Virus genome (UHGV): UHGV-0071988
Direction: 5' to 3' (one strand)
From: a virus
DNA length: 16,916 nucleotides
Shown here piece after piece: positions 466 to 16,864 of this stretch; the first letter of the stretch is position 1; the number at the start of each line of letters is the position of its first letter. The notes beneath the pieces are model-generated. The model did no database searches. It was not told the origin of the DNA and saw only the letters and a list, made by a program, of their open reading frames with translations. The translations under genes were made by a program, and so were the position numbers.

Positions 466-1088
466 CAGCACACCTCCCCAGCCAGCAATGCGGATACAAA
501 TCCGATATAGCTGCCATTATCATCAACATAACGAGATACCGCGCAGTCAAAACGATCCGCTTCCTCATCCGTTGCCGGGATTTTATGGCTTCCAAATGAC
601 AGGTACTGAACTTTTACGCCTGATTTGGCCTCATCCTTCTCAAATGGGATATCCATACCCTCTGTGTCATCGCAGACCGCCGCACTCAATAAGTTATCCA
701 GTTCGCGCTGAGTAAAACCAATTGAGTCCAGAGCAAAATCATCGGCCGCAAGATCTGCAAGCTCCGCGCTTAACAACTCTTCATCCCAACCAGCATTCAA
801 CGGAATACGGTTGTCGGCCAGACGATATGCCTTCTTCTGATTCTCCGTTAGCCCTTCCAGAACAATGCAGGGAACATCATCCATCCCCAACTGAGTGGCC
901 GCAGCAATTCGACCATGACCAGCAATTACAACGTTGTTCTCGTCTATCAGGATCGGATTAGTCCATCCGTACTCCTGTATGCTGGCAACAATCTGATCTA
1001 CCTGCTCCACGGAGTGTGTGCGAGCGTTCTTTTCATAACCAATCAACACAGAAAGTGGTAAAGAAACCACATTAAGATGTTTTGTCAT
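465..1088 (-). CDS. ParB-like nuclease domain protein (207 aa)
   Basis: Complete ORF; segment ILIDENNVVIAGHGRIAAATQLGMDDVPCIVLEGLTENQKKAYRLADNRI matches the ParB N-terminal domain pattern (GxGR box). Acidic C-terminal half. Weak SD upstream. Confidence 0.75.
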   Translation of the reverse strand: MTKHLNVVSLPLSVLIGYEKNARTHSVEQVDQIVASIQEYGWTNPILIDENNVVIAGHGRIAAATQLGMDDVPCIVLEGLTENQKKAYRLADNRIPLNAGWDEELLSAELADLAADDFALDSIGFTQRELDNLLSAAVCDDTEGMDIPFEKDEAKSGVKVQYLSFGSHKIPATDEEADRFDCAVSRYVDDNGSYIGFVSALLAGEVC

Positions 1089-1330
1089 GCCGTTTATCCG
1101 CTAAAATCCCCTCGCTTGTGCAAGCAAGTGGGCCTCGGTTTGTATCCACGGCACCCTGTGGGTATGAATGACTGTCGTCAGGTCGCAACTGACGGCGGTC
1201 GCCCACCTTCCAGTAATAAAAAAGCCACCAGCATTAACTCCACAGCGATCTGGAGTTAATGAGGCAGCTTTGGTTTGCGCATTATCGCAGCCCCTGGTAA
1301 GCACAAGAGCTGCTGTAATGCTAAAAAACA

Positions 1331-1356
1331 AAACCACCCGCAGGTGGTTTTATAAA
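1331..1356 (-). terminator. Intrinsic terminator (hairpin AAACCACC-cgca-GGTGGTTT flanked by A/T runs; strongest on minus strand)
   Basis: Perfect 8-bp inverted repeat at 1331-1350; the minus-strand transcript has a U-run after the stem (reverse complement of ctaaaaaaca). Sits just downstream of the 1380-1787 gene. Confidence 0.6.
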
Positions 1357-1379
1357 TAAATAGCAAACAGGTATCTGCA

Positions 1380-1787
1380 CTAATCAGATAAACCAAACTT
1401 CTTCTTTGCCAATGACTTGAGAAGTTCTACACCAACATCCTTCATAACAGCCAATGGCTCATTGCTAATTTCTTTTAGTCTAGCGAAAACATCTTTGCTC
1501 TCTAGTGCACAGGCAAAATCCTGTCCCTCTGTAGTCAATCTAATATCTACATCAACAGTCCTCATTCCTGCCCAAAAATTAACATAGCCAAGACGCAGAG
1601 GATCACGCGTTTCCATCTTCATATTGCTGATAAAACCTTGCTCAATCAATTGCATATAATGAAACATGCCCTTTTCTGAGGCTATATCAAACCCCGCGTC
1701 TCTTAGTTGATTTACTGTTATGAACGTGCTTTCTGAATCCAAAAACACAGTCAGCATCTTTTTTAGATAATCCAGATCGGTGCGCAT
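1380..1787 (-). CDS. Hypothetical protein (135 aa), AT-rich
   Basis: ORF with strong SD (TAAGGAGGgtaaaATG) placing the start at MRTDLDYLKK (internal ATG of the track ORF 1380-1823). No family recognised. Confidence 0.65.
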   Translation of the reverse strand: MRTDLDYLKKMLTVFLDSESTFITVNQLRDAGFDIASEKGMFHYMQLIEQGFISNMKMETRDPLRLGYVNFWAGMRTVDVDIRLTTEGQDFACALESKDVFARLKEISNEPLAVMKDVGVELLKSLAKKKFGLSD

Positions 1788-1873
1788 TTTACCCTCCTTA
1801 AATGGAACGCAAATGTTACACAACCTTTAAAAAAGACACATTGTTTTATTTATGCCTCATTTTAATCGACCAA

Positions 1874-2026
1874 TTACTGCCCAAATTTATCAATAAATAA
1901 TTGCTCCCGCTTACGCCGAAAAGCTCTCTGCGCCACTAAGATGCGCCACAGGACACCAGCAATAACCACCAGCGAGAAACAAAACCACATGGCCATAATC
2001 ACCAGAAAAATGCCAAGACCATTCAT
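1874..2026 (-). CDS. Small hydrophobic protein (50 aa, one predicted TM segment, basic C-terminus)
   Basis: ORF below the track's 60-aa cutoff: MNGLGIFLVIMAMWFCFSLVVIAGVLWRILVAQRAFRRKREQLFIDKFGQ. ATG overlaps the stop of the upstream 68-aa ORF (TCATGA). No clear SD. Confidence 0.3.
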   Translation of the reverse strand: MNGLGIFLVIMAMWFCFSLVVIAGVLWRILVAQRAFRRKREQLFIDKFGQ

Positions 2027-2229
2027 GAAACTATCCATTCTTCAATGAATATCTCCATTAACATCAAGAGATACGCCGCACCCAGCGCGGTTCCTGTCGA
2101 TATAGCTAAGACAAACCTCAAAGATAACGAGGTGTCTTTCGCTTTTACCCATACACAAAAGCCTGCTAGAAATACCAATAAATTTCTTATTGGAGGAAGG
2201 AACCAGAACAAATCACTCGGCATAAGCAT
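2023..2229 (-). CDS. Small membrane protein (68 aa)
   Basis: Hydrophobic ORF (LFWFLPPIRNLLVFLAGFCVWV ... ALGAAYLLMLMEIFI). Start taken at the second ATG (GGAAG 6 nt upstream). Overlaps the 3' end of the 99-aa gene by 17 nt. Confidence 0.35.
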   Translation of the reverse strand: MLMPSDLFWFLPPIRNLLVFLAGFCVWVKAKDTSLSLRFVLAISTGTALGAAYLLMLMEIFIEEWIVS

Positions 2230-2512
2230 GATCATCTTCCGCTGCTGATTTACACGCCGCAGTTACTGATATATTGATAACCGGTGCGCTAATCGTGATG
2301 GACGACTCTGTCGGTTGACTCGATATAACTGAACGATGGCTATCAATGAAGTCCACAATCTCATTCAGGCACTCTTTAGCTGCCTCATCGTGACTTTTTC
2401 CGTATGCTTCATGGAGGACTTTCATCCTCATCATTGCTCCATCACACATCATCGAAAGCGCGTAAAGCACATCACTAATCGCCATTTCTTTTTTGGTGCT
2501 TGTCGAAGGCAT
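2213..2512 (-). CDS. Hypothetical protein (99 aa)
   Basis: ORF with SD AAGGAG 8 nt upstream of ATG (MPSTSTKK...). Start lies about 25 nt downstream of a strong terminator, so there is no room for its own promoter. Confidence 0.55.
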   Translation of the reverse strand: MPSTSTKKEMAISDVLYALSMMCDGAMMRMKVLHEAYGKSHDEAAKECLNEIVDFIDSHRSVISSQPTESSITISAPVINISVTAACKSAAEDDHAYAE

Positions 2513-2536
2513 CCCATGTTCTCCTTTGTCTGGATG

Positions 2537-2563
2537 TAAAAAAGCCTCGGCAATTGCCGAGGC
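2537..2563 (-). terminator. Intrinsic terminator (20-nt palindrome GCCTCGGCAATTGCCGAGGC plus U-run on minus strand)
   Basis: Palindrome at 2544-2563 followed, in the minus-strand direction, by a 7-nt U-run (plus-strand A-run 2537-2543). Located between the 73-aa gene and the 99-aa gene. Confidence 0.65.
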
Positions 2564-2586
2564 TCGTTGTTCGTTATCGTTACGGT

Positions 2587-2808
2587 TTAATGCTCGCGTC
2601 GTCCGGCGACAACTTCGGATTTGTATTTCAGGTCGCCCAGCAAGAATTGCAGTTTAAGCATCTTTGCCGCCGTGTAGTTCCCTGATTCCACAACCTCTTT
2701 CATGAGGTCATAAACGGCCGCTACATCATCAGCCAGGAACTCTTTGCGTTGCTGCTCTGTCGCACGTTTGAAGGAAATACGCATTACTTTACGGTCTTGT
2801 TCTTTCAT
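2587..2808 (-). CDS. Small basic protein (73 aa), possibly ribbon-helix-helix DNA-binding
   Basis: ORF with SD GGAGA 8 nt upstream. N-terminus KVMRISFKRATEQQRKEF resembles a beta-strand followed by a helix (RHH-like); this is tentative. First gene behind duplicated promoter copy A. Confidence 0.6.
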   Translation of the reverse strand: MKEQDRKVMRISFKRATEQQRKEFLADDVAAVYDLMKEVVESGNYTAAKMLKLQFLLGDLKYKSEVVAGRREH

Positions 2809-2815
2809 CGGGTTA

Positions 2816-2925
2816 TCTCCGGTTTAACCAGGGCGGGTATCGCTCGGTTTCGGGTATAACCTTAGGAAATTTTTTCCCACTTGTAAAGCGCTTTTTATAT
2901 AAATCTATAATTATATAATTCTATA
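2816..2925 (-). promoter_or_regulatory. Duplicated promoter/leader element, copy A (TTTACA-N17-TAAGGT plus upstream AT-rich palindromic site and shared 5' UTR)
   Basis: Near-identical (3-4 differences by eye) to 9538-9647. Minus-strand -35 TTTACA = 2882-2887, -10 TAAGGT = 2859-2864, 17-bp spacer. Leader ends in SD GGAGA before the 73-aa gene. Confidence 0.55.
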
Positions 2926-3532
2926 CCGCTTGCCAGAGAGCATCATGCAACTGGATACCTCCATTGCACTGGTTGCCCCAGCCATGCCAGCCATCAGGTA
3001 AATCACCGCGAGCAAACAGCTCAATACGAGGAACATCACCTAACAGCCTTACCAGCTTGTCACGAACCACATCAGGCTTCCGAGAATGCTCCAGACGAGG
3101 CGATGTAAACGACTGAATGATCCCCGCATCAAGGCGGGTCGGCAATTTGCCTTTTACCGCAAACAAGCAATCTTCACTGTTTGCACGAGTCATATGCCCC
3201 ATCCCCATCACCAGCTTATCTGGTTGTCGGCTACCACATTTGTTCCATGTGAAGCCCTTCATGGTCATCAGCCTGAATCCCCATGCTTTCACCACCAGCA
3301 ACGCTTCTTCTGGCTGAGTCGGAACCCACCACATGGCCAACAAACACGATTCAGGATTAGCAAGCTGCCAGACAGGAATACGAGCAATATCCTCAGCTTT
3401 CATCGTTGGATACTTAAAACCAGCGCCACGATTCCCATCCTTACACTTGTCTTTGTATTCCCAGGGGGGATCTGCATAAATCAGATTAAACAATGCAATT
3501 GCCTCCATGTTAGTTGTGTCTCCGGCAGTCAT
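2921..3532 (-). CDS. DNA N6-adenine methyltransferase, MT-A70 family
   Basis: Motif NLIYADPPWEY (DPPW catalytic motif) followed by YPTMKAEDIARIPV and LLAMWW, typical of MT-A70-type phage adenine MTases. Start is uncertain: ATG at 3532 (MTAGD) or 3508 (MEAIA); the track's 3643 start adds an implausible hydrophobic extension. Confidence 0.8.
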   Translation of the reverse strand: MTAGDTTNMEAIALFNLIYADPPWEYKDKCKDGNRGAGFKYPTMKAEDIARIPVWQLANPESCLLAMWWVPTQPEEALLVVKAWGFRLMTMKGFTWNKCGSRQPDKLVMGMGHMTRANSEDCLFAVKGKLPTRLDAGIIQSFTSPRLEHSRKPDVVRDKLVRLLGDVPRIELFARGDLPDGWHGWGNQCNGGIQLHDALWQAV

Positions 3533-3803
3533 AACTCTGGCCAGCTCTACAGCAAACACAACGAAAAGGGCACTAACCAGACTGATTAATGCCCTTGCCT
3601 GTTGTGTGCCGGATATCGCCCGACAACGCTGTTTTGGTAACACGGCTACAGTTCCGTGCCGCTCCAGCTTTTACCCCTTTGCGGATAACAGGCCCTGCCT
3701 GTAACTTAGCCCCACGTTCGCCCGAAATGCGCACCAGGCACGCATAAAGATGAGCACGAAGGAAGTAACTCCACCGCGCTTATCTTTATGTGTGAGAGTG
3801 AAT

Positions 3804-3879
3804 TGGTGGCCCCTACCGGATTTGAACCGATGACCGTGCGATTATGAGTCGCCTGCTCTAACCACTGAGCTAAGGGGCC
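3804..3879 (-). tRNA. tRNA with anticodon CAU, tRNA-Ile2 (lysidine-type)-like; 76 nt including encoded CCA
   Basis: Minus-strand sequence GGCCCCTTAGCTCAGTGGTTAGAGCAGGCGACTCATAATCGCACGGTCATCGGTTCAAATCCGGTAGGGGCCACCA folds as a cloverleaf (7-bp acceptor stem, D-arm GCTC/GAGC, anticodon loop CTCATAA, T-loop TTCAAAT). Acceptor stem and D-arm match E. coli ileX as recalled from memory; Met isotype not excluded. Confidence 0.85.
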
Positions 3880-4018: not shown

Positions 4019-4052
4019 TATACATTTATATAATTATAGAAATATATATTAC
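4019..4052. repeat. AT-rich palindromic site C (member of the dispersed TATAGA/TTATATAA family)
   Basis: TACATTTATATAATTATAGAAATATATATT; shares TACATTTATATAA with site D and TTATATAATTATAGA modules with sites A, B, E, G. Confidence 0.5.
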
Positions 4053-4990: not shown

Positions 4991-5273
4991 GATTAAACCC
5001 TAATGCGTCAACTATCCGCGCCAGATTGCCCCTGAAATACAGAACAACGATGCAGATAATCAGATTTCCAATAACCACCAGCCAGTGGGATTCTTGATAA
5101 AGACCGAACACATAACGGAAGGGAACATTGGCGTATACAATGACGTAGATATAAGCCAGAAAGGAAACAAATGGACGATGCCTGGAGTCTTTCCGTCGAT
5201 AAAGCATCAGCGCCATTACTATTACTGTGCAAAGCACCGCATTAATCAGTGCTGACGGGTCACTGCTTACCAT
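4977..5273 (-). CDS. Holin/antiholin-like membrane protein (98 aa, about 3 TM segments)
   Basis: Start taken at MVSSDPS (strong SD GGAGGGGG 5 nt upstream). Three hydrophobic segments. Sits between the first membrane protein and the endolysin. Confidence 0.55.
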   Translation of the reverse strand: MVSSDPSALINAVLCTVIVMALMLYRRKDSRHRPFVSFLAYIYVIVYANVPFRYVFGLYQESHWLVVIGNLIICIVVLYFRGNLARIVDALGFNHDQR

Positions 5274-5655
5274 TTGAACCCCCTCCACGTAAGCGGGAAA
5301 GCATTCCAAAGATGCTACCGAGATCCTGGCTGTTTACGAACGTGAGGATTTTAATGGTCAATGCAGCCACAATAACCGCACCAAGCGCATCCAGAGGACG
5401 ATCGTTGTAGCTGGTCCATTTGGCAAGAAATGAGCCAACTAACGGCGCTCCAATCACTCCAACAATGAACGATGTAAAGAAATAGCCAATCAGCTTGAGA
5501 CGGCTAATATTCACCGCTGTAGCAACATAGAAAACAGCGCCAGCAAATGCCCCGAATACAACGCCGTAATCAATACCAGTTGCAATACCAAAAACGCTGG
5601 CACCCATCAGGCCACCAGCAGCAACGGCCGTACCGGAAATTGGTTCTGCTGACAT
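5260..5655 (-). CDS. Putative holin (131 aa, multi-TM, Gly/Ala-rich)
   Basis: Start at MSAEPISG with SD GAGGA 7 nt upstream. 3-4 hydrophobic helices. First gene of the lysis cassette, immediately after terminator 5669-5698. Confidence 0.6.
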   Translation of the reverse strand: MSAEPISGTAVAAGGLMGASVFGIATGIDYGVVFGAFAGAVFYVATAVNISRLKLIGYFFTSFIVGVIGAPLVGSFLAKWTSYNDRPLDALGAVIVAALTIKILTFVNSQDLGSIFGMLSRLRGGGSNGKQ

Positions 5656-8398: not shown

Positions 8399-8435
8399 CT
8401 TATACATTTATATAAATATATAATTCTATATACGG
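8399..8435. repeat. AT-rich palindromic site D (promoter-proximal, upstream of the PapI-like gene)
   Basis: CTTATACATTTATATAAATATATAATTCTATATAC; shares TACATTTATATAA with site C and TATATAATTCTATA with site A. Confidence 0.5.
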
Positions 8436-9537: not shown

Positions 9538-9647
9538 TCTCCGGTTTAACCAGGGCGGGTATCGCTCGGTTTCGGGTATAACCTTAGGAAAATTTTTCCC
9601 ACCTGTAAAGCACTTTTTATATAAATCTATAATTATATATTTATAGA
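9538..9647 (-). promoter_or_regulatory. Duplicated promoter/leader element, copy B (TTTACA-N17-TAAGGT), immediately downstream of the Q-like gene
   Basis: Near-identical to 2816-2925. Minus-strand -35 = 9604-9609, -10 = 9581-9586. Contains the near-perfect inverted repeat AAATCTATAA-ttatatat-TTATAGATTT (9623-9650). Confidence 0.55.
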
Positions 9648-9700
9648 TTTCCGATATTCCCGGTGCCTACAAATCACCAAAACAGCTCAAAATGACACTT

Positions 9701-13363: not shown

Positions 13364-13383
13364 ACGCCCGCTTACATGATTAT
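13364..13383 (+). terminator. GC-rich hairpin AAGCGGGC-taac-GCCCGCTT (possible terminator of the cI operon)
   Basis: Perfect 8-bp stem 15 nt after the stop of the 124-aa gene; the downstream U-run is poor. Confidence 0.4.
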
Positions 13384-13385
13384 AG

Positions 13386-13475
13386 ATTTATATAATTATA
13401 TAAAACGCTTTTCATCCGTAAAAAAGTTGGTTATGCTTACCTCGTTCTATAAATATAGATTTATAGAATTATATA
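13386..13475. promoter_or_regulatory. parA upstream region with two AT-rich palindromic sites (E: 13386-13414; F: 13445-13468)
   Basis: Site E is gaTTATAGATTTATATAATTATATAAAA. Site F is a perfect 10-bp inverted repeat TTCTATAAAT-atag-ATTTATAGAA. Both lie within 110 bp upstream of the ParA start. Confidence 0.55.
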
Positions 13476-13499
13476 ATCAAACACATGGAGTCTCGACAA

Positions 13500-14153: not shown

Positions 14154-14186
14154 TATATAATTATAGTTTTATAGATTTATATAAGA
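14151..14186. repeat. AT-rich site G between parA and the RHH gene
   Basis: TAATATATAATTATAGTTTTATAGATTTATATAAGA; contains the core TATAGATTTATATAA (14170-14184) shared with sites A, B and E. Confidence 0.5.
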
Positions 14187-14667: not shown

Positions 14668-14689
14668 AAAAAAGGCCCCCGAAGGGGCC
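14668..14689 (-). terminator. Intrinsic terminator, minus-strand oriented (GGCCCC-cgaa-GGGGCC plus U-run)
   Basis: Hairpin at 14674-14689 with A6 on the plus strand at 14668-14673, giving a U-run after the stem for a minus-strand transcript. No U-run in the plus direction. Confidence 0.55.
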
Positions 14690-15204
14690 TAATCGCTACT
14701 TGCTGCTAATGTTTATCGTCACATTCAGAGCGTTATCAGTAATCTTCCAACCCTCTCCATGTGGCGTAAACAAAGCTCCAGTAACAACGATCAAAATACA
14801 TACGTATTTCCTCATTGTATTGGCCCTCGCAGGCCGTTTCACGGCATCTCCACCGACGAAAATGACGCGAGAGCAAGCACACCGCTTGTGCTTGCGTGTA
14901 CGGCAAGTGGATGATCCTTTCCTTAAAGTCGGTGCCCGGGTGCGAATCGGCGAAAAGGCCCCAAGCCATATTACACGTCCTCGCCTTCATAATGAAGGAA
15001 TAACAAATGCTTTTATTACATGTAATTACATCCGAAGAAGTTAAAAAACTTCATTCTGCATGAACTAAGGAACTAAATTTCTTTATATGAATAGTGGACT
15101 ATTCACCTCAGTTGAGTAAGAATAGATACGCCGCTTGTGCTTGCGTGGTTGTTTATACAACGACGTTATGCTGAAAGGACCGCGAATCCGATCAGCACGA
15201 AAGA

Positions 15205-15981: not shown

Positions 15982-16358
15982 AGTGTCAAACAAATTTGAT
16001 TGGTCAAATCATGCGCTTAATGAGCAGAAAATTCCGTTTTTCAAACCCACGCTATGTGGTTGTCTCTGTTAAAATCTCGCCGTATTGACATGAATGCGCC
16101 ATTGGTGGACACTTTCCGAGCCGTAGCAAAATCTACGGCCGGGATTGGAACCCCGTAGACACAATGGCGCATACCGCGTTAGCGGTTTTTTTATGCGTAA
16201 AGCACTGCTACACCCAAATTATGGTGGGGCGTGCGGGGGAGTCGTAAGACTCGCCGGTTCGTCATTGTGTCCGGTAGTTCCAACCCTGCACGTCTCACCA
16301 CCCAATGATTGGAACCTGACGGTGGTGAGTATCCTTAACCTTTAAGGGAATCATCACA

Positions 16359-16550
16359 ATGACAAACCTACCCCATGACTATTACGTCAACCTCGTAAAG
16401 ATCCTTCTCAAGAAAGCCTCATACGCCGATAAATTCCGCCTGGCTGAAATAATCGAGCGCGAAGCTATGCGCATCGCCAGCAACGATAACGCTGTTTCTG
16501 ACGCAAAAATCTCCCTCGTAACCAAAGTAGTTATGGGAGGTGCAAAATGA
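16359..16550 (+). CDS. Hypothetical small protein (63 aa)
   Basis: ORF with SD AAGGGAA; stop overlaps the start of the next gene (ATGA). Confidence 0.5.
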   Translation: MTNLPHDYYVNLVKILLKKASYADKFRLAEIIEREAMRIASNDNAVSDAKISLVTKVVMGGAK

Positions 16551-16864
16551 AAACGCTTCCGACCGTTAACACCCTACAGCCTATCCTGCATAACCAAATC
16601 CCTGTCATTACTACCGAGTTACTGGCACAGCTTTACGGCGTATCTCCTGTACGCATTCGACAAAATCATCATGAGAATAAGGAACGCTTCATTGAAGGTA
16701 AGCACTACTTCAAAATTGAAGGTAACGAACTTCGAGAGTTAAAGCACAAAGTGACTCAAGATAATGATGTGAAGAACAAAAACTCTTTAAGAGATTCAGT
16801 TAATGACGCCCCCTCTAAAAGAGAGAGCGTCGAGCACAGAGTAGTTTTAAACTACTCTGTTTGA
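16547..16864 (+). CDS. ORF6N/KilA-N-like domain protein (antirepressor-like N-terminal domain, 105 aa)
   Basis: SD GGGAGG 6 nt upstream. Segment ITTELLAQLYGVSPVRIRQNHHENKERFIEGKHYFKIEGNELRELK matches my recollection of the ORF6N/Bro-N-type domain found at the N-terminus of phage antirepressors. Confidence 0.55.
   Translation: MKTLPTVNTLQPILHNQIPVITTELLAQLYGVSPVRIRQNHHENKERFIEGKHYFKIEGNELRELKHKVTQDNDVKNKNSLRDSVNDAPSKRESVEHRVVLNYSV

Follow-up and report, generated by a model that had tools for sequence, protein, structure and literature searches.

What does a temperate phage-plasmid carry between its lysis and packaging genes, and how might such genes be expressed? The question is raised by the virus genome UHGV-0071988, a stretch of 16,916 nucleotides (nt) here called the window, in which positions 1,380 to 2,808 hold a cluster of five small genes that an earlier note, made from the letters of the DNA, had likened to abortive-infection and toxin-like modules. 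The element to which the window belongs is a temperate phage-plasmid of ~48 kb, and the cluster lies at its lysis/packaging junction. Comparison with 40-odd related loci (L001-L042, comprising plasmids of Escherichia coli, contigs from IMG/VR and metagenomes, and contigs of Klebsiella aerogenes, Yokenella and Salmonella) shows the cluster to consist of three evolutionary units. The backbone is made up of a promoter-like site, the strongly constrained helical-hairpin core of 65 amino acids (aa) within the first gene, o73, and the terminator T1. Behind it stands a trio, o99-o68-o50, which is conserved across the phage-plasmid family and appears to lack a promoter of its own, and the last unit is a swapped-in DUF2513 cassette. 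The explanation tentatively preferred here, with confidence a little short of even, is that of a moron-type accessory slot, in which the trio is expressed through read-through of T1 and has a protective role at the membrane in the carrier state.

The five open reading frames (ORFs) of the earlier note all stand, every one of them on the minus strand. They are listed here together with the signals around them, each named by its length in amino acids (RBS, ribosome-binding site).

2896-2926, minus strand: TATA-rich array of 8-nt-phased repeats, overlapping the end of the MT-A70 methyltransferase gene and directly upstream of the promoter-like site
2859-2887, minus strand: promoter-like site 'copy A' (-35 TTTACA at 2887-2882, 17-nt spacer, -10 TAAGGT at 2864-2859)
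2587-2808, minus strand: o73, with its 65-aa core from ATG 2784 (PHROG 6621; RBS GGAG)
2536-2565, minus strand: predicted terminator T1 (stem 2565-2542, U6 at 2541-2536), about 30 nt before the o99 start
2213-2512, minus strand: o99 (PHROG 8319; RBS AAGGAG)
2023-2229, minus strand: o68, a two-segment membrane protein, its start overlapping the o99 stop and its stop overlapping the o50 start
1874-2038, minus strand: o50/o54, a single-pass membrane microprotein, 54 aa from ATG 2038 or 50 aa from ATG 2026
1827-1865, minus strand: weak hairpin with U6, within the spacer between o50 and o135
1380-1787, minus strand: o135, DUF2513-like (PHROG 585; own strong RBS AAGGAGG)
1322-1353, minus strand: predicted terminator T2 (stem 1353-1328 with a U-run), closing the DUF2513 cassette
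1215-1271, minus strand: terminator-like long hairpin T3 with U6 (stem 1271-1221), the slot boundary on the ParB side, beyond the cluster coordinates

Morons were reportedly defined in lambdoid phages by Hendrix, Juhala and colleagues (e.g. HK97 gp15, or bor and lom of lambda), and the slot resembles them in patchy presence, deviant composition, a terminator at the end, and a place in the late region between lysis and head genes. The skeleton that the relatives conserve begins with the MT-A70 gene and the promoter-like site, goes on to a first gene that varies (76-98 aa) and to the 65-aa gene with a terminator behind it, and resumes after the variable slot with the T3 hairpin, a very conserved leader and a ParB-N gene of 207 aa. 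Among these collinear relatives an 89-aa first gene is present or absent, and the o99 modules, o68, o50 and o135 are also patchy. The slot is deleted in part or whole in L005, L012, L018 and L020, and is therefore dispensable; in L012 o50 is intact and o99 breaks off at codon 36, and L005 has o99 but no o50. The cluster had been described as more AT-rich than its flanks, and this is borne out: the DNA from T1 to T2 has 41.1% G+C, against 50.0% in the methyltransferase gene and 47.9% in the ParB gene (flanks of about 48-50%) and 46.7% in the whole window. It falls in the lowest 2% of equal-sized segments, all the others as AT-rich lying at about 14.8-16.2 kb. The slots of distant relatives are not AT-rich (49.5-51% G+C). 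HK97 gp15 is a small inner-membrane protein, like the membrane members of the trio. As for the promoter and terminator that a moron would bring with it, the terminators are strong (T2, and T1 for the o73 unit) and the promoter-like site lies upstream of o73 only. Unlike morons, neither the trio nor the DUF2513 cassette has a detected sigma-70 promoter of its own, and the trio sits behind a terminator; it also has a long history in the family, unlike a single recent insertion, and its products have no similarity to described moron products.

The backbone gene is present as called in the earlier note, but as a natural deletion form rather than the standard gene, most relatives keeping two genes here. 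In the window and in L008 the 89-aa first gene is deleted down to its first 8 codons, which are fused in frame to the 65-aa core (o65, in the window from ATG 2784) to give the 73-aa form, here o73; the 73-aa fusion form is itself common, occurring in hundreds of contigs. The core is under strong constraint, with a ratio of non-synonymous to synonymous change (pN/pS) of 0.05 among close relatives, and the o73 family has 13 clusters among 5.8 billion proteins, all from the phage-plasmid lineage. The protein had been read as a possible ribbon-helix-helix (RHH) regulator, and it does resemble RHH regulators (Arc/MetJ/CopG/ParG) in its small size and in a basic N-terminus (MRISFKR) that looks strand-like in the raw sequence. 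Those regulators consist of a beta-strand and two short helices in about 45 residues, whereas the AlphaFold model of o65 (predicted local distance difference test, pLDDT, 90.2) has two long helices, at residues 10-34 and 39-59, and no strand; the model is of a monomer, whereas RHH strands form in dimers. A Pfam search with o73 gave no family at E up to 0.1, and a Foldseek search of the o65 model against the PDB gave no match with E below 0.6, the 50 matches listed including generic helical hairpins only and no RHH fold. On the strandless hairpin, the lack of a profile and the lack of an RHH fold match, this identity was rejected. Paralogy of o65 and the N-terminal hairpin of o99 was rejected as well (hhalign probability 0.3%). 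The view of a DNA-binding protein and membrane proteins as one module finds no support either: T1 separates the 73-aa gene from the membrane genes, and in several relatives a further ~240-300 nt and a second terminator intervene between these and the 65-aa gene.

The two terminators proposed for the cluster hold when set against shuffled sequence (z = -5.0 for each). T1 and T2 are predicted to fit the definition of an intrinsic terminator, namely a G+C-rich hairpin directly followed by a U-run and more stable than shuffles: T1 has a 10-bp G+C-rich stem and then U6, at -19.7 to -20.3 kcal/mol, with folds as good in 0 of 200 shuffles, and T2 reaches -22.6 kcal/mol. T1 is kept across the lineages compared, with G-U/G-C variation, and the block upstream of o99 that reads hairpin, U-run, ACATCCAGACAAAGGAG, N5-6, ATG is kept in every one of them. 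The relatives examined from E. coli, Klebsiella, Yokenella and Salmonella all have this leader of terminator, RBS and ATG, as does one further relative, and the coding DNA behind it goes down to about 45-50% identity between lineages.

The promoter-like site fares less well than the terminators. The sequence TTTACA-17-TAAGGT is present as copy A had been described, but in the window it stays below the threshold of the scan tool, which called zero promoter-like sites on either strand between 1000 and 3800. The homologous site in the distant relatives L014 and L017 is TTTACA-17-TATGGT and passes the scan. Copy A lies inside a repeat of 108 nt, whose copies at 2816-2923 and 9538-9645 are 95% identical, and the latter copy precedes a DUF3560/primase-like gene of replication type. 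Only about 30 nt separate T1 from o99, which leaves no room for a promoter, and none was called in the region scanned; the trio therefore appears to have none of its own. The TATA-rich array upstream of copy A is conserved in the Yokenella relative L017. Arrays of the same kind (TATAnnnT, 8-nt-phased) occur at 2896-2926, 4019-4049, 8401-8431, 9610-9648, 13373-13411, 13446-13484 and 14154-14184, where they precede o73, a tRNA gene, a 100-aa ORF, the DUF3560/primase-like gene, parA (twice) and an 85-aa ORF after parA. Their layout is like that of the centromere/operator arrays of small partition proteins (parH/ParG-like, or omega of pSM19035), and they suggest that a single protein might co-regulate several operons.

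Two further observations concern the boundaries of the slot. In several relatives (L017 at 5239-5482, L014, L010, and NZ_LN890526 (L042/L041)) the 65-aa gene is followed by two terminator hairpins, T1a and T1b, which are near-identical in L014 and stand ~240 nt apart; the spacer between them is non-coding and apparently structured, and Rfam at a permissive threshold found nothing credible in that of one relative. The window and most E. coli copies keep a single hairpin, the one adjoining o99, and the absence of the spacer from the window suggests its loss via recombination between the hairpins. On the ParB side, T3 (-27.5 kcal/mol, z = -3.2) has compensatory changes at three pairs across relatives. 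The ~200 nt upstream of the ParB-N gene (1089-1271, minus strand) are conserved above the flanking coding DNA in E. coli, Klebsiella, Yokenella and other relatives and have five base pairs with compensatory changes (e.g. CGTCAG/CTGACG to TACCAG/CTGGTA). This stretch, in which the search for a sigma-70 promoter found none, may act as a regulatory leader of the packaging operon or may be a DNA site.

Within the cluster, the stop/start overlaps reported earlier exist between o99 and o68 and between o68 and o50 (ATGA), but not between o50 and o135, which are 86 nt apart. This spacer has 31% G+C and a weak hairpin with a U-run, and at its position there is a clear terminator in the relatives L017 (6052-6070) and L014 (5994-6012), and in L021 also. 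The soluble member of the trio, o99, is acidic (15 D+E against 8 K+R) and consists of an N-terminal helical hairpin and a beta-rich tail, being an internally shortened form of a modular family of 97-251 aa. The forms seen are of 67, 97, 99, 123, 151 and ~251 aa; all have an N-terminal domain of about 65 aa in common, and the long ones add a central domain (PHROG 14707) and an 'SITIxAPxIxI' tail, so that o99 of the window amounts to the N-terminal domain and the tail without the central domain. Its N-terminal part has a pN/pS of 0.27 among close relatives. The hairpin is confident in the AlphaFold model and the tail is of low confidence, and Foldseek of this model against the PDB gave no fold match beyond generic helical hairpins. 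A large-database search recovered 16 clusters for o99, or 20 with a profile, confined to the phage-plasmid lineage.

The two tiny membrane proteins of the earlier note are confirmed by hydropathy. In o68, two hydrophobic segments (1.7-1.9) flank a K/R loop, giving two transmembrane segments; o50 has one, with a best 19-residue hydropathy window of 2.73 and a basic C-terminal tail, and its family has an invariant F-x2-KREQ motif in that tail, which is predicted to be cytosolic. The gene for o50 is real as called, but its start is more probably ATG 2038, giving 54 rather than 50 aa, because distant homologues keep an 'MD' N-terminus and the same overlap with o68. The o50 family comprises 5 clusters among 1.84 billion representatives, and its members, at 24-29% identity, keep the length and residues F7, L8, W14, L19, V20, F36, K39, R40, E41 and Q42. 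Homologues stand directly after the o99 family gene, with overlapping or adjacent stop and start, in Klebsiella, Yokenella, Salmonella and L024. For o68, a homologue with 41% identity lies in a Salmonella Weltevreden plasmid, at the same position and with the same coupling overlaps; the Klebsiella and Yokenella relatives lack the gene, and so does L024. This homologue led to rejection of o68 as a gene specific to the E. coli lineage, and the idea of a frame-shifted remnant of a longer o99 gene was rejected for lack of DNA similarity, in any frame, to the 151- and 251-aa forms.

The earlier note would have been refuted had relatives not conserved the small ORFs as coding sequence; they do conserve them so, and the ORFs are real genes. 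Besides the o65 value given above, pN/pS is 0.24 for o50 between the diverged L017 and L014 (pS 0.37, pN 0.09), and 0.35 for o68 between the window and the Salmonella homologue, where the other two frames contain stops. The o68-o50 stretch aligns without gaps and at essentially full length in 21 relatives, with the o68 frame free of stops in all 21; in 57 of 59 matching plasmids this frame is open over at least 80% of its length, and a stop-free run of 68 codons at the composition of o68 has P of about 0.011. The o68 start codon and Shine-Dalgarno sequence are kept in two upstream contexts, after the 99-aa and the 151-aa forms of o99. The Prokaryotic Genome Annotation Pipeline (PGAP) leaves o68 (2023-2229, minus strand) unannotated in the RefSeq plasmids examined, as a gap of ~190 nt between annotated neighbours, and some other annotators call it; its absence is a recurrent annotation omission for this phage-plasmid family.

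The last gene, o135, matches PHROG 585 with E = 1.3e-25 and Pfam DUF2513 (PF10711) weakly, at 18.9 bits with a cut-off of 29.6, and a 98.5%-identical protein is named 'DUF2513 domain-containing' in RefSeq. Its pN/pS among close relatives is 0.26. The gene is a minority allele: of about 60-70 plasmids, no more than 7 have it, and the last position is usually taken by an unrelated protein of PHROG 1935 (136 or 89 aa), accompanied in some cases by one of PHROG 2100. The 136-aa replacement has no similarity to the DUF2513 gene, and the reading of the two as diverged alleles was rejected. In the Klebsiella phage ST846-OXA48phi9.2 (a prophage), a distant DUF2513 homologue occupies the same kind of position, with lysis genes on one side and terminase genes on the other. 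In sum, o135 is a recently acquired, swapped-in AT-rich cassette that has its own RBS and T2.

Searches of the five proteins against Pfam, NCBIfam, PHROGs and PADLOC yielded no named function, only unnamed PHROG families and the sub-threshold DUF2513 match. PADLOC-DB v2 gave no family at E up to 0.1 for these proteins, and none for eight alternative cargo proteins with the limit set at E = 0.01. Sequence searches of the PDB with o135, o65 and o99 gave nothing with E below 0.2, and neither an o99 query nor an o50 profile matched the GTDB species genomes. No Pfam or PHROG family was found for o68 or o50, which by profile are thus not members of a holin family. Rfam at a permissive threshold gave, for 1000-3000, no match save one at chance level, and no antisense promoter was called in the cluster (both strands, 1000-3800). 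Because the o73, o99 and o50 families are confined to the phage-plasmid lineage, no annotated distant relative lends them a function. None of the features tested places the slot among the RHH, holin, PADLOC-defence or toxin-antitoxin families.

The setting of the cluster is that of a phage-plasmid by its gene content, and by plasmid and phage relatives that have terminase and portal genes. The genes run in the order holins, endolysin, spanins, tRNA, MT-A70, cluster and ParB-like genes, with terminase and portal next in relatives. The distance from the lysis genes (two holins, an endolysin and spanins) down to the cluster is about 2-3 kb, and the cluster is flanked on one side by the MT-A70 methyltransferase and on the other by ParB-N/methyltransferase genes; the window further encodes a CI-like repressor, ParA, the DUF3560/primase-like gene, a Ref-like nuclease and an Ea22-like gene. 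Of 5426 complete E. coli genomes, 74 (about 1.4%) contain near-identical DNA; the reference strain ATCC 25922 is one of these, and its 48-kb plasmid has the o65, o99, o68 and o50 genes. In E. coli, 214 of 217 matching places are plasmid-borne, most of the plasmids being of about 47-49 kb, and typing of 62 PLSDB plasmids with the element gives 59 as non-mobilizable and 3 as conjugative. The element is also carried by the Yersinia phages vB_YpM_39/41/44, and relatives come from Salmonella, Klebsiella and Yokenella as well. No paper describing the family was found in the literature searched (DUF2513, the Yersinia phage name, and 48-kb phage-like ATCC 25922 plasmids).

Some other features of the window may be recorded here. 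The tRNA gene at 3804-3879 (minus strand, anticodon CAT) is called tRNA-Met by ARAGORN and tRNA-Ile by RefSeq in E. coli plasmid relatives, and from the latter label may be of the lysidine-modified type; a TATA array of its own precedes it and a terminator-like hairpin (3596-3566) follows it. Positions 1-36, which include a run of 13 C, fall inside a ParB-methyltransferase gene as the relatives read it, and differ from all 22 relatives compared, which have ...GCAACACAACCACCCCACGG there; the mismatch is most likely a contig-end or sequencing artefact and not a real homopolymer tract. A full-length Rfam match to the ryfA family lies at 14668-14963 on the minus strand (132.9 bits, gathering score 80). 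This family is presumably the TimP/TimR locus of Salmonella, with a small membrane toxin and an antisense RNA, and if so, the element would already have a candidate type I toxin-antitoxin system adjoining its partition genes. At 16120-16305 (plus strand), matches to isrK (70 bits) and to C4 antisense RNA (77.8 bits) stand directly upstream of an anti-repressor-like ORF (16547-16864), and together they appear to form an immunity arrangement of the P1/P7 immI type in this 48-kb phage-plasmid.

How, then, might the trio be expressed and what might it do? On the tentatively preferred explanation, most transcripts from the candidate promoter would stop at T1, and only polymerases running on past T1 would reach the trio, through low-level read-through or through terminator-resistant transcription in lytic growth. 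As most transcripts would end there, the trio would be made at a low level, a small fraction of that of o73, as would be fitting for small membrane proteins whose excess does harm. Its three cistrons would be translationally coupled. The o68 and o50/54 proteins would insert in the inner membrane and o99 would dock on their cytosolic face, the acidic o99 being a plausible partner of the basic KREQ tail. The trio seems to stand outside the core machinery of lysis and packaging, and its role would be a dispensable protection of the carrier state at the membrane, which we infer to be either superinfection exclusion or a defence by sensor and membrane effector. Some expression in the carrier state is weakly favoured, because TATA arrays also precede parA, which must be expressed in the plasmid state, and because the promoter block is shared, at 95% identity, with the replication-type gene. 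This hint, together with the high turnover of the slot, makes a protective function at the membrane the best guess.

Several points weigh against this explanation. The -10 element of copy A (TAAGGT) is poor and fails the scan threshold in the window, and promoter activity, T1 efficiency and the timing of expression are all deduced from the DNA. If the TATA arrays were operators of the prophage repressor, the unit would be confined to the lytic phase, contrary to a carrier-state role. Profile, sequence and fold searches gave no homology to a known exclusion, defence or lysis protein, and the frequent deletions could be equally compatible with nearly neutral genes. Within the close E. coli lineage, pN/pS is 0.59 for o68 and about 1.0 for o50, and constraint on both therefore seems weak or relaxed there; these close relatives are uninformative on whether the two genes are coding, which the deeper comparisons settle. 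The same high ratios are what passenger DNA would give, neutral or decaying, with ORFs open through recent common ancestry only, and the internal o99 deletions, the deletions of the whole slot in relatives and the omission of o68 by PGAP fit it too. Such a passenger is very improbable all the same: frames, lengths, overlaps, hydropathy and motif are kept at about 50% nucleotide identity with pN/pS of 0.24-0.35, the o68 start has kept its signals in both of its upstream contexts, and conservation is higher in the o99 leader than in the coding DNA. Going further in the direction of protection, the trio might be an undescribed defence or exclusion system private to the family, with T1 as a safety catch that keeps the effectors sub-toxic, though this is unlikely. 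The sensor would then be soluble and modular, a helical hairpin to which a winged-helix-like domain may be added, and it would control two membrane microproteins, effectors with two and one transmembrane segments and an F-x2-KREQ tail, which would permeabilise or seal the inner membrane.

The abortive-infection or toxin-antitoxin interpretation with which the earlier note began, in which o50 and/or o68 would be membrane-depolarising toxins, checked by o99 or by low expression and killing the cell on phage attack or plasmid loss, draws on the general shape of type I toxins (small hydrophobic proteins with a basic tail), on a strong terminator that throttles expression, on a soluble and a membrane partner placed as in RexA/RexB, and on the small-toxin biology that the element uses elsewhere, at the ryfA-family locus. 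It has found no positive support: PADLOC matched no component or alternative cassette, the cluster has no antisense promoter-like site and no Rfam match, the 73-aa protein is no antitoxin-type regulator of the RHH kind, and co-occurrence is not obligatory, L012 and L005 being counterexamples and several lineages lacking o68. We regard it as unlikely. The gene calls, terminators, AT-richness and membrane proteins of that note are retained, its RHH regulator and single module are not, and its abortive or toxic function stays an unlikely reading. Type I systems (Hok/Sok, the ryfA family) share with the trio the short hydrophobic peptide with a basic tail and tight limits on expression; they differ in that here no antisense RNA promoter or RNA family match is seen, the peptides are coupled to an upstream protein gene in an operon, and they are kept or lost independently of their neighbours. 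Lambda RexA/RexB is alike in having a soluble protein and a small membrane partner side by side in a temperate phage, possibly at low expression. It differs in sequence and profile (PADLOC negative), in lying in the immunity region rather than the late region, and in RexB, which has four membrane segments where the trio has two separate microproteins with two and one, and its counterparts here do not strictly co-occur. The T4 Imm/Sp and P22 SieA/SieB proteins are likewise tiny inner-membrane phage proteins that are dispensable for growth and variable between relatives, but have no homology to the trio, whose expression in the carrier state is putative.

Position invites a different reading, in which the trio would be an accessory of lysis timing and would modulate holins or spanins like T4 RI/RIII or antiholins, through terminator-resistant late transcription. 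The cluster lies between the lysis and packaging genes, on the same strand as the lysis cassette and transcribed in the same direction, the trio is a mixture of small membrane and soluble proteins without its own promoter, and T1, T2, T3 and the weak hairpin all fall within 1.5 kb, so that late transcription would have to cross terminators or restart. Against this stand the tRNA gene, terminator, methyltransferase and promoter-like site between the trio and the lysis genes, the lack of similarity to holin or antiholin families, the dispensability of the trio in several otherwise intact relatives, and the fact that no antiterminator was identified; this reading seems rather unlikely. Its flanking DNA-modification genes (MT-A70 and ParB-N/methyltransferase) would instead suit a counter-defence island, of small, fast-evolving and mostly acidic proteins that help incoming DNA to escape host immunity. 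The charge of o99 (D+E nearly twice K+R), the acidic look of alternative 87- and 89-aa cargo proteins (judged by eye, residues not counted) and the high turnover and sequence divergence agree with such an island, which is nevertheless quite improbable, as two of the three trio members are integral membrane microproteins, atypical of known anti-restriction proteins, and no named family resembles the cargo proteins.

That temperate phages carry variable accessory genes at their lysis/packaging junction is already well known; the proteins described here are uncharacterised and private to their lineage, and they belong to a phage-plasmid family that is common and whose accessory genes are wholly uncharacterised. 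The analysis fixes the gene models, including a membrane gene omitted by RefSeq in all relatives examined, tells backbone and cargo apart, and singles out a three-gene membrane module and the arrangement of a terminator before an RBS. Should the trio not be an exclusion or defence device, the region would be ordinary variable phage cargo; if it is one, it would be a very small new system, and an example of membrane effectors limited by a terminator.

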